Source: Callorhinchus milii
Taxonomy: Eukaryota
Assembly: GCF_018977255.1 (NCBI RefSeq)
Contig: NW_024704764.1
Span: 1,116,001 to 1,180,000, forward strand
DNA length: 64,000 nt
Direction of reading: 5' to 3'
Shown: positions 10,067-64,000 of the stretch, in pieces
Layout: the number at the start of each line of letters is the position of its first letter
Numbering within the stretch: the first letter of the stretch is position 1
Made by a program: the position numbers and the translations under genes
Notes under the pieces: model-generated
Told to the model about the DNA's origin: nothing
The model's database searches: none
What the model saw: the letters and a program-made list of their open reading frames with translations, nothing else

Positions 10067-10389
10067 CTATAAACTGGCTGTTGGTCCATTTGCCTCATGA
10101 TTCTGAGAGGTTCCTTGTGAGTGATTATTTCCAGAAGCAGTCGATGAGCCTGTTGTAGACCTGATTTTGGTATTTGGCAACTTGTGATCTTTTTTCCATT
10201 TCATTCGCCTGTTCTGGAACCATATTTTAATCTGTCGTTCGGACAGGCAAAGATTATGAGCTATTTCCACCCTTCGCCTCCGGGTTAGGTACCGATTAAA
10301 ATGAAACTCCTTTTCCAGCTCTAGAACTTGCTGCCTGGTGTAAGCAGTGCGGGAGCGTTTCATTTCCCCTCCTTTGCAATTAGGGTTCA
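10067..10389 (-). CDS. HOXB4: HoxB4 exon 2 (homeodomain)
   Basis: [35 protein letters not shown]...[19 protein letters not shown] is diagnostic of paralog group 4; acceptor ttttgttcag at 10390-10391; TAG stop at 10067. Confidence 0.96.
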
Positions 10390-10640
10390 CTGAACAAAAA
10401 GCAACAACACAGAAAGAAATAACTGACTGAACAACTGACTGAACAACATCAACCTCATACGGAATAACAGGGTTGCATGGAAACATTAGCATTAGATCAA
10501 AAATTTAAGGGAAACGTAAAAAAAAGAAGTTCACATCTACACTATTATTAAAGACAAAAAAAGTAAGTGTTCAAAGAAAGCGATCTGTGCGGCTAGGATA
10601 CAACACATCAAAGGCGCATGGCCAGAAGTGTCTTCGTACA

Positions 10641-10670
10641 GCAATAAAAATTTATGGAGGATGTAATTAC
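10641..10670. promoter_or_regulatory. HB-1 homeodomain/Cdx-binding element of the Hox4 intron
   Basis: gcaataaaaatttatggaggatgtaattac matches the conserved TAATTA/CATAAA/TTTATT cluster known from Hox4 introns. Confidence 0.75.
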
Positions 10671-10776
10671 TAACCCCCAGATAGGCGATTGTAAATCTAA
10701 AGCATGACTATTACAATGGGTGCTTGCAATAGATCCCAGGCTTCCAGGTGGTAAAAAGCGAAGGCACACTACTCAC

Positions 10777-11184
10777 CGATGTTTATATGTACTTTCTTCA
10801 TCCATGGATAAACCACGGGCTCTTTGGAGCAAGAAGTGTTTTGGTTGCTGGTGACCTGACTGCAAGAGGGCGGTGGGCTTGGAGTCACCGGTTCACAGTG
10901 GTGCCCGCGTTTGGCTAAGTGGTCCTGCAGGCCGGTCTGCGATTGCCCGTGACCCCTGGGCGCCACGATTTGCTCGCCAGAGCCCTGGATGTTGCTGCAG
11001 GAGGAATAGCGTTGGTCAGCGCTGTACGCTGACCGTGGGTACATCGGCTCATGCTGAAACCCCGGCTCCCGCGCACGACTGTAGTATTCCGGAGACTGAC
11101 TTGGCAGGTAATCGCTCTGCAAATACTCTTCACACGGTGGAACTTCGGGTCCACATAGTTAGAGTTAATCAAAAACGAACTCAT
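10777..11184 (-). CDS. HOXB4: HoxB4 exon 1 (apparent 1-bp frameshift near 11140)
   Basis: MSSFLINSNYVDPKF in one frame, then (PP)CEEYLQSDYLPS...KEPVVYPWMKKVHINI in another; donor G|GTGAGT at 10777. Restoring one base gives a 243-aa protein. Confidence 0.9.
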
Positions 11185-11244
11185 GACCTTTAATATCTGA
11201 AATGCAAAATAACTCAAAAATGTTTTCCACCCAGTCGTTTTTTC

Positions 11245-11320
11245 CTGTTTCGTAAACCCTCCCACTTACTGTCAAGTGAACAAAGTTGGTGGTTCATGTG
11301 ACCCTGACAGCCAATGGCAG
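11245..11320 (-). promoter_or_regulatory. Conserved Hox4 proximal promoter / 5' UTR element
   Basis: cgtaaaccctcc..cttactgtcaagtgaacaaagtt..catgtgacc..gccaatggc, the block typical of Hox4 promoters with an overlapping NFY/YY1-type CCAATGGC site. Confidence 0.65.
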
Positions 11321-12684
11321 CTCCAGCTCCATTCCCGGATAAGGAAATAGAATCGGGCGTTGGATGCTCCGAGCGTCTCCTTTAAGCATTTTTTTGATTA
11401 CAAATATTAATGCTATTTTTTTAGAGAGAGAGAGAGAGAGAGAGAGCCCGGAACTTAGCAAAACCACACAAGTTTTTAAATAGGTTTTGCTCACGCCCTT
11501 GCCAGAAGTTCAATCGGGCTCACAATGCGACCACATTGTATAAGTATTTATCTTCTTTGTCAGTTCTCCGTTCAGATGGTTCTTTCATTCTTTCTGAGTC
11601 AAAAATCTTTTTTTTTTTTTAAAAATTATGTAAAATTATCTGATATGTTAGAAATTTCCGCAGCGTGATTCGTTTATTTTAATGTCGGGTGCAAAAAGCT
11701 CTGTGCAGGGCCGGAGGGTGGGGGTGGGGGGGGGGGGGGGGGGTGGCGCACGCACGGCTTGCCTGGCAAAGACGAATTGGGCTTCTTTGGATCAATAGAA
11801 AATTCATCAACTAATTCAGGGCGCCCAGTCAACAAAATTACATTTCGCAGTGCATTAGATGGACGATTTTCAACCAGGACAACTCTTGTTTAAACTAGTC
11901 TGCTCGCACCATTTAAACCCCCCGCACACTTATATAAGATCGAATCATTTCCCAGGTGACGATCACATCCAAGTCTAAACGAAGTTATGGATGTTCAATT
12001 AAGTAGATCACCATAAAGTGTGCGCGGAATGTGAATAGAGTCCGATCTTGTCCTATATTTAATCGGTTTTGTTGGTCGCAATTATACAGGGATCAATATA
12101 TCCAAATAATGCTAGACTATCCTTTTGCAAGCGCCTGGTCTTGGGCTCTCAGAGATGAATTTAAAAAGTGTCACAGACGATGGTTGTTGGTTTAATTTCA
12201 AATGTTAAATAAAAACCTGAGAAAAACTAAAAGAAATTTTAAAAACCCAGATTTCCATGTACGTTTATTGCAATTGTGAGATTTCAATACAATTCCGTGA
12301 AGTATTCAGCGAACGACATACATTTTACATGGAGCTGATACAATCAGCTTTGAAATGATTAATTTATAAAACATGCAAAACCTTTAGCTCTGACCTTTTC
12401 GAAACGGAGGAATGCGCGGGAATATCGAAAAAGGTAAATTACAGTCCATATTCAAGTGACGTAGTAAATGTAACACAACGGAGGATTAAGAGTTATTATA
12501 ACAAGATAACAGAGGGACGAGGATAGCACACCGTCACTGCGCATAATTTCACACGACAGAGACAGGTACCTGCATGCAGATGCTGCTTTTCTTTAAAACA
12601 TTAGCGATTTGTAGAAATAAAAAAACTGGATCTAAATGTTGTACGTTCTTCCGTTCTTCCGAAGGAATGTTGTAGCGTTTGTGT

Positions 12685-28645: not shown

Positions 28646-29034
28646 TCATGACTGTGGTCTATACGGTGAAGATGTTGAAAGCTATAGGCCTATTAGCTAT
28701 TCATTAAAACCTTTAGGAACAACGGTTCTGAATGCATCTTTCAATAGAGAACATTTATGTACATTAACATATTAATCTTATGTATCAGACTTTGGATTTT
28801 AATGAATTATTCAGAGTCTCTGAATATGCAGCTTTCATATAATGTGGAGCTGGTCAGAGTGAAATGGATTTTAATTCTAGTGAAATAAATTTAATATTTG
28901 ATGTTCATTTTCGAAGAAGTGTAATGAACGANTTTTTTTTGGTGCTCTCTCTGATTATGCTCAATCTAAACATGCAGACAGAGGTGGTGTTTTTTTACAC
29001 ACATAGAATTATGTAGTATGAAAACAAAACTCAC

Positions 29035-60378: not shown

Positions 60379-63300
60379 CTGTCAATCGGGAAAAACAAAT
60401 TGTCAAACGGACTGCCGAATAAAAGTGTTCTTTCTTTATTTAACCCCAACAGCATCGTGACCCGAGATTCAAAAGGGTCTCTCATTTGAGGAAATATTAG
60501 CGAACCATCCACGATTCTTCTTGGATCAAAACACAAACTGTAGACGGTGCTGGACCTCAAATTAGTGGAACCTATTTTTATTTTTCAATCGCGACGTTAG
60601 TTTCGTCCAGGAATCGAAGGGGAGAATTCACTTTGCGACAGGGCCAAAAGTTGCACACTTAGAACTTAATTCAGAATGTTTACGAAATACATGAAGACGG
60701 TGTAACTATATCAAAAGTTACTGATTTGCAATCTAATGCAATACAATATCGCTCGAAGAGAGCCTTTGTATAGCCTTATGACAGCAGCCCTCGAAGTGAA
60801 GTGATATATACATATATATATAATGGATAGAACGTGCCAGAATCATTGAACATGCTCTTTTACACACGACCTGCGCTGCCTAACAAAAGCAGGACTTTAG
60901 TATTATATATATATGTGTGTGTGTGTGTGTGCGCGCGCGCGCATAAAATAAACCTAAACTCATTTGTACTGAACCGGTTGGATTTATCAGCGAAACCACA
61001 TTGACATCTATTGTTATTCCTTTAATGAATAATATCCATTGGACAATCGCGTCACCTTCTTTTTCTAACTGGATGGATGCATTAGCAAATAGCTCTTCTA
61101 CACCCCCGAGTTGTCGGCCACGCACGCGACCGTTGTTCGTGACCAGGTTCCTCGCTTCCGAGCGCACAATAAGGCGCTCATGCACTGAATTGCACGAAGG
61201 TTATGATTTATACAGTAAAGGGATGTTGTCGTTTTGAAAGGAGAAGCGCACAGATACTTGGAGCTTTTTCTTTACGGGAGGGATTATCGATAGTGCCAAA
61301 CAGCTCCCCCCCCCCCCCCCCCGCTATTCATTCACCTTTTAATGGAAAGTTTTAACCACAGTCTTATCATTTTGCATTCCAACACGGTCAGAATGAAGTC
61401 CTTGTGTTCAACGAGTGATACACACTGAAAGCTGCAGTAACTGTCTCGCCACAGAAGTAATCAGACTTACACAGCGGTTGTTGTTTGTTAATTGTCAAAG
61501 GATTGTCAAGGAACTTTCACATGGGCGCGAAAAGTTGCATAAAAGCACCCCCCAAAAAAAACTATTTATGTGGAAGCGTTTAAGCAAAACACCAATCATT
61601 TCAAAAACGGTGAGGATTGTAAATGGTGTGAGAACAAAATCTCAAGATTTTAATTCATTGTCTATTAACCACTCGTCTGTGAAGGTTTTATGGTCACGCT
61701 TCAAATAAACTTTCATTGCTCGGTTGAGGTGAAAATTGACTGGAAATAAAGACGGTTGGGATGGAAAGCATTGGATCTGATTATTTTAATGGCTTTGATT
61801 ACAGTTTCAACAGGGGAAACTTTTAAAATTTTGAGGAGCAATGAAGAAATAATGTAATTGTTCTATGTTTACCTGAGACAACAATCCATTCTATATTCTT
61901 CATAAACTTAATTTTAAAAAATCGATCCTTATTGAGCTGAGGCACTCGCTTGCTGGAATAATATGTCCACCACAGTGGCTTTGTCCTGAAAACTTAACCG
62001 AACGTTTTCGCTTGTTACCATTGAATCAAAACACCAATACCGTTTGAGTTTATAGAAACAATAACATTTATATCTGATTGAAAAAAGAGAAATATTAATG
62101 GACATAAGTTGCCAGCAGAAGTCTGGATTAGATGGCTCAAGTAGAGAAAAATATCAGCTCAATGACTTGCTGTAATACTGTATGATTCTATGTTATAATA
62201 ATACTCCTACTCGTGTTCTTGTTAGAGGGAAACCACATTCCCAAATCATCACATTAAGTATAGTATTACGAAACCCTCGGTATCAAATGAAATCTGATAA
62301 TAATCTTTCTGTGCTTCAGTACAGCCCTTTAACCAATAAAGATTCACAATTATAACTGTATGTACCAGCTAATAAACAGGAGAGCTACTTTAATACTAGT
62401 TAATATTTCTACCCAGAAAATAAGGTACAAGGAACGTATTGTGATGCTCAAATTAATATTTTGTCTGAAAGGTCATACTTGCCATGTATTTCCTGATTAT
62501 ATGCTTCTTTCATTTTGGTCTCTAATCTTTCGAGAAAAAGGGGAAAAAATGTGTGATACGATAGTTGGATTGAATCCTGTCTACATTTACGGGTTCTTTG
62601 TTTGTATTTGTTGTGCTATTTATTCTTTGTTTACTTTCTACAATTTAATTGAGCAACCCCTTAGATCAATAGGAACACTATTTGTTGAGGTCATTGCAGT
62701 GTGGCCTTGGACCCAATACTTTTCAAACGCAGTAAATGGCAAAAGAAGGCGAAATGGAGAGAAGCAAGACTGGAATGGAATAAGCGATAACAAACCACTT
62801 TGTGGCTTAGTTTGAGTAATGAAACGTAAATCAAAAATGTACCTTTAAACAGCTTGCTAATGATTAATCGGCTAAGTTTTTTTTAAGCAGCTGCTTGCTG
62901 CTTTATACTACAATAATTATTTGATAGAAGCAAAATCTAGACACATAAAATAGGTTAGCAGCAGTTCTCTCAGTCATTGCAGTGTCTGAAAGGTACGATT
63001 TCAATTTTGAATCCAACCTAAAGTCTAACTGCACTTTAGTAGTCTCGCCACAGATAAATGAAGACATGAAGGTATGAATGAAGAAAAAAAAACTTTTGTT
63101 CAAATCATTGGCAAACAAAGAGTAACGTAGTTTAATACTTCTAGGTATTGTTCTTCCCTAGTACTGAGGAATAAATTGAATAACGTATACATATCTTTTA
63201 AATCCACTGCATTATATATCAGATACTGTATTGATTTTAAAAAAGTGTTGAATCGTACGCAATGCATGTGTTGCAAAGACACTTGGTATTGCATGATCTG

Positions 63301-64000
63301 TCAGAGGATGTACTTAAGTTCGTGAGAAACGTCTTCATGCCAAACAGCAAAGAATAAGTCAGTGTTTTTGCACACTGGAGGATTCAAACCAGAATTTGCA
63401 GTATTTGTATGAGAAATTCAGACCTGGCCCATCTATTTGACCATCCGATAGAGTCCATAAATCCAATGCCATTTAACCTGAAATTGCGATGGAATGAATC
63501 TGAATCTCGTGTAGGCACCATTCAAGTATGGGATTAATGCAGTGCGTATTCAGGCAACATATATCTTAAACGAAAACAGCATTTGGAATGCAATAACTTC
63601 TCTTGCAGAATAGGAGAATATTTGCCTCGGGGAGTATTTATTAATTGTCTGAATAGTGTCGCCCAAGAGATATAATAAATCTCCAGAAAATTATACTCTT
63701 AAGTTAAAATATATCACAAATGTTCACATTATGCCTGAACCTCCCTGCCTCATATTTACGGTTGGGTTACTTGGTTCGTGAGCTGAACACTCGGTAACAA
63801 TCTACAATTAAATGAAAGAAGTATAATATCTAGATATTATCTTATTCATTGCATCATCTCAGCTAAACTGTTACCAAACATACGCATAGCAGGGAATAAT
63901 CAACTGTGAGGGAGTAGGGTAATTTACAAAGAAATTGGCAACTTCAGAATATTTGAACTTTGCAACTTGTTTTTCGAAAAATAGTGCTGGGAAATTATTG

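Follow-up and report, generated by a model that had tools for sequence, protein, structure and literature searches.

HoxB4 codes for a homeodomain transcription factor in which the hexapeptide YPWM serves as a cofactor-binding motif. The Callorhinchus milii protein has been deposited (P0001 in our collection; 243 aa; UniRef100_C7B9E2, ACU32558.1 in GenBank, XP_007902560.1 in RefSeq). In this species, the elephant shark, four Hox clusters with 45 genes have been sequenced (excerpt of a review, PMC5054437), and in the catshark HoxB4, a protein with the short start considered below, is expressed in embryos (excerpt of PMC9026449). The elasmobranch HoxB4 proteins form a cluster of 20 (e.g., Scyliorhinus canicula CBL59351.1, Heterodontus, Leucoraja, Rhincodon), and the four that were aligned are 82-84% identical to the elephant shark protein. 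They resemble it in starting, in all entries listed, at the second Met of the M-x-M-S-S motif, but differ in length (241-244 aa, one of 238 aa) and in substitutions that include EEYLQSD against EEYSQNN and GGEMKR against GGEPKR. The HoxB4 proteins of coelacanth (Latimeria, P0004), reedfish (Erpetoichthys, P0005) and lungfish (Protopterus, P0010) as well as the stingray HoxA4 (P0009) also share MSSFLINSNY, KFPPCEEY, YPWM and the homeodomain, but they retain two extra N-terminal residues (M-x-M-S-S). In our homologue search (proteins of 213-2000 aa; best 120 of 300 matches listed), KFPPCEEY was found in 117 and M-x-M-S-S in 108 of the 120 homologues listed. The two points at which the DNA studied here departs from these motifs are thus genuine departures from the family.

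The DNA analysed (the window) is a stretch of 64,000 nucleotides of the C. milii genome, whose minus strand carries seven homeoboxes of a Hox cluster. The homeobox at about 10363-10184 is the one of HoxB4: YPWM ends exon 1 and the homeodomain follows in exon 2, the best match is HoxB4 (the top eight matches are all so named), the gene lies 3' of a group-5 gene in a collinear cluster, and the group-4 N-terminus MSS..KFPPCEEY is present once the read-supported base described below is counted. Six more homeoboxes are located upstream of HoxB4 on the same strand; we take them to be HoxB5 to HoxB10, on the basis of motifs and their order. The first exons labelled HoxB5-B8 are open from the ATG through the hexapeptide, and that of HoxB9 is open for 189 aa, so the segment displays neither local decay nor a series of coding errors.

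Features of the HoxB4 gene in the window (position 1 is the first letter of the window)
Feature	Position	Strand	Basis
AAG replacing the first ATG of M-x-M-S-S, within the 5' leader	11188..11190	minus	five same-species runs agree; deposited protein begins two codons later
Putative start codon of the 243-aa HoxB4 (M-S-S-F; G at -3)	11182..11184	minus	P0001 begins here; window 11184-11143 translates to its residues 1-14
Missing-base site: T run two long, three in the reads (Phe15 codon)	11140..11142	minus	A inserted behind plus-strand 11140 in X1, X2, X3, X5, X18
HoxB4 exon 1, coding part	10777..11184	minus	11140-10778 equals P0001 residues 16-136, 100% identity
In-frame Met within exon 1 (residue 48 of P0001)	11042..11044	minus	translation
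Shifted-frame stop codon (89-aa product), relevant only if the deletion is real	10915..10917	minus	translation
YPWM hexapeptide motif	10799..10810	minus	sequence and homologue alignment
GT-AG intron, 387 nt	10390..10776	minus	skipped by an X5 contig; junction fits I136-V137-N138 of P0001
HoxB4 exon 2, coding part and stop; homeodomain about 10363-10184	10067..10389	minus	10387-10070 equals P0001 residues 138-243; PF00046 listed for P0001

As written in the window, exon 1 is broken. The original prediction, made from the letters of the window, had described a 1-bp deletion in the KFPPCEEY motif and the replacement of the usual first ATG by AAG, and its description of the text was confirmed: the minus strand reads AAG TTC CAC CGT GTG AAG at 11145-11128 and AAG GTC ATG at 11190-11182, translation from ATG 11184 stops after 89 aa, this stop is 138 nt ahead of the donor at 10777, and ATG 11044 shares its frame with the downstream part carrying YPWM. 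The frame of ATG 11184 yields MSSFLINSNYVDPKF and then diverges from HoxB4; the PPCEEY...YPWM continuation is found in a different frame beginning at 11140. Apart from this break, both HoxB4 exons translate free of further stops or shifts.

The window was compared with independent sequencing data. Among the 24 public runs that matched it, 12 are labelled as the same species (up to 0.91 of sampled words). Eight of the 24 were aligned, namely five same-species runs (X1, X2, X3, X5, X7) and X17, X18 and X20; X17 and X20, from other organisms, gave no aligned contig. All four same-species runs covering the site have an A inserted behind plus-strand position 11140, with the depth of the inserted base equal to the total depth (X1 9.28/9.28, X2 9.87/9.87, X3 8.85/8.85, X5 12.3/12.3); these values refer to contigs, which drop rare variants, and not to reads of the window's own animal. 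The runs represent four samples from two studies (X1, X2 and X3 from P1, X5 from P2), whereas X7 has a gap in its cover between 10890 and 11156 and was used for the AAG only, not for 11140. The inserted base is also present in X18, which comes from a related species (5.46/5.46). It turns TT of the minus strand into TTT and thereby restores Phe15. In X2, a single contig extends over 10560-11420, and its sole gap relative to the window is the missing base, besides one substitution. The base is likewise present in the X5 contig lacking the intron (10390-10776, with CT..AC ends on the plus strand); the short side of this skip has 29 letters, just below the 31-letter threshold, and X5, like X7, is only guessed to be RNA, no matching run being recorded as such. 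The deletion had been placed at about 11139-11141 and the lost base had been taken for a C, which we reject because the reads show a T in the TTT run.

The deposited protein leads to the same result. P0001 equals the window translation at residues 1-14, 16-136 and 138-243, i.e., at each of the 241 residues encoded by the window outside the break (F at 15) and the splice junction (V), with the MSSF start included and the 121 residues past the break matching at 100%. The difference is confined to Phe15, which is in frame in P0001, while the window is one base short of that codon. Since the base is present in independent runs and the deposited protein is intact, the gene is intact in the species; by inference, the window's own animal also has the base. 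The window's form was found in none of the four covering same-species runs, and the lesion is a homopolymer indel contradicted by independent reads and by the deposits. The suggestion of a null or truncated HoxB4 allele subject to nonsense-mediated decay (NMD) thus gained no support, as runs and deposited protein are intact.

Furthermore, exon 1 of X18 differs from the window by 17 substitutions in 313 letters. Of these, 12 affect third codon positions when read in the intact frame, and 10 are synonymous; the only other gap of X18 there is an in-frame one of 3 nt. Small as this sample is, the pattern is compatible with purifying selection, and neither further disablements nor relaxed selection were apparent in it.

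We regard it as almost certain that the frameshifted HoxB4 is an ordinary HoxB4 gene with a one-base consensus under-call in a short homopolymer, and that its first ATG is truly AAG, the loss being likely ancestral to cartilaginous fishes. One T of the three-T run would have been lost during consensus calling of the window. With the base restored, exon 1 spliced to exon 2 would encode the 243-aa protein with the MSSF start, KFPPCEEY, YPWM and the homeodomain, and re-initiation at 11044 is not needed as an explanation.

The 1-bp deletion might instead be a real allele of the assembled animal, rare or private to it and probably heterozygous, leading to NMD or to an 89-aa product without homeodomain. 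A stop located more than 50-55 nt before a junction triggers decay, and at 138 nt the allele would be null by this rule; if real, it would be a natural NMD-sensitive null of a core Hox gene, segregating in a wild chimaera at a frequency too low for it to show up in the four other samples. In line with this, the data in favour of the extra base come from contigs of other samples, and at 10232 and 11360 the window departs from the runs by what looks like allelic variation. Nevertheless, such an allele is very improbable, as no contig of the four covering runs has the window's form at 11140 and the base depth equals the total depth everywhere. Besides, the lesion shortens a homopolymer, and homopolymer-length errors are the commonest residual errors in long-read bacterial assemblies (10.1101/2021.10.14.464465, in the portion of the text available). 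The window's only N, at 28932, also adjoins a T run, in an intron of the gene labelled HoxB6, which hints at homopolymer consensus trouble. Described homopolymer errors (PMC12007338; 10.1101/2021.10.14.464465; excerpts of both) resemble the present case in that a single base is lost from a run, is absent as a loss from independent data, and breaks a conserved gene. They differ in that the run here has just three bases, shorter than the most error-prone runs, which limits the under-call reading. Far less probable still, to the point of being negligible, is a fixed HoxB4 pseudogene, or a gene surviving by re-initiation at Met48, with the lost ATG and the frameshift as steps of one decay. The window text taken by itself would allow it, but the reads of four samples from two studies carry the base and the deposited protein is intact, which refutes it; moreover, the short start is common to 16 elasmobranch entries, the divergence of X18 is biased to synonymous sites, and both exons are without an additional stop or shift. 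We found no evidence that Met48 is used as a start.

At 11188-11190 (minus strand), all five same-species runs (X1, X2, X3, X5, X7) are identical to the window, for which reason a second consensus error was rejected here: the species truly has AAG where the first ATG would be. A local consensus error, originally considered the most likely cause, therefore stands for the 1-bp deletion (four of four covering runs, the related species, the deposited protein) but not for the AAG; likewise, the proposed read check at 11100-11200, performed with contigs, returned the extra base, whereas ATG GTC ATG did not appear. As the runs agree with AAG and the second Met is the first residue of the deposited protein, the deletion and the AAG are independent oddities. 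The codons upstream of the start are CAG ATA TTA AAG GTC (Q-I-L-K-V), in register with Q-K-L-M-I before the MSS of extended HoxC4 entries, so that AAG occupies the position of the first Met. There is no in-frame upstream ATG in the window: going upstream, the reading frame meets a stop after ~29 codons, none of which codes for Met.

A comparison with HoxB4 of other chondrichthyans, as had been recommended, revealed the second-Met start in all 17 entries examined, which are proteins and not DNA. These entries (chimaera, sharks, skates and rays) begin with M-S-S or, once, M-N-S. They comprise the chimaera and 16 elasmobranch entries, two being isoforms of one species and 15 of the 20 cluster members being listed. 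All but one isoform of the 16 are otherwise full-length Hox4 proteins; the shark and ray starts are annotated protein starts, and X18 ends at 11185, short of the AAG. HoxB5-B8 in the window start directly at M-S-S. Among the 120 matches listed, six of the nine that start with MSS are not chondrichthyan HoxB4, so such starts arise elsewhere too, by loss or by annotation.

We conclude that the AAG is not a lesion and is likely harmless. Translation would begin six bases downstream, at the conserved second Met (11184), and the protein would be shorter by two residues. The loss would be tolerated since the conserved MSSF start is still provided by the second ATG, which has G at -3. Judged from the sequences compared, this N-terminal loss is likely chondrichthyan-wide and probably goes back to a single event in the ancestor of cartilaginous fishes. 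Alternatively, the AAG could be lineage-specific, with sharks and rays retaining the upstream ATG and being merely annotated from the second Met. The elasmobranch comparison is indeed one of protein annotation, and the bony-vertebrate entries P0031, P0076 and P0084 start at MSS too, which may be an annotation choice. We consider this unlikely, however, as all 17 chondrichthyan entries, from several sources, concur. In the same collection, stingray HoxA4 (P0009) starts with MTMSS and 27 of the 120 listed matches are annotated from still further upstream, which argues against a general annotation bias to the second Met.

The false frameshift could make gene-loss screens or automatic annotation call HoxB4 broken, and the assembly needs correction or a flag at this site. 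The biological import is slight. The one genuine oddity is the loss of the first ATG, which is probably old and of minor interest; shortening the start by two residues seems to be a minor trait that cartilaginous fishes have in common, and it suggests that M-x-M can do without its first Met. A literature search (titles and abstract openings) retrieved no paper dealing with the N-terminus or the start codon of chondrichthyan HoxB4, a weak hint that the short start is perhaps unremarked so far.

Several minor observations were made. P0003 (Mobula birostris isoform X1, predicted) joins HoxB4 exon 1 to a tail without homeodomain and is probably a product of annotation or intron read-through. At 10471, in the intron, the window has G and all three covering runs (X1, X3, X5) have T; the G is due either to another consensus error or to an unsampled allele. 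At 10232 and 11360, the same-species runs disagree among themselves, so these appear to be polymorphisms; the former affects the third position of a homeobox Gln codon.

Upstream of HoxB4, the minus strand has short open reading frames at 11389-11214, out of the HoxB4 frame, starting at ATG 11332 (12 aa, in a frame that is already open from ATG 11389) and at ATG 11297 (27 aa). Both finish ahead of the HoxB4 start codon and might tune translation. Contigs of the guessed-RNA runs X5 and X7, which belong to different studies, end at 11371-11374, whereas those of X1 and X3 continue to 11410; this is a weak hint of a transcript 5' end there, with a leader of about 190 nt. Motifs at about 11320-11295 and 10670-10640 (minus strand) resemble the CCAAT/YY1 and E-box sites of the Hoxb4 promoter and the conserved Hox4 intron element, respectively.

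At the other end of the window, 60400-64000 (minus strand) contains no open reading frame of at least 120 aa and no recognisable first exon for the homeobox labelled HoxB10; this exon probably lies past the window end, implying an intron of over 3.6 kb. Homeodomain residues that may be unusual are TRFQ in the gene labelled HoxB5 (about 24480, minus strand) and VAHLL and KLKRLNK in the gene labelled HoxB9 (about 50480-50360, minus strand).
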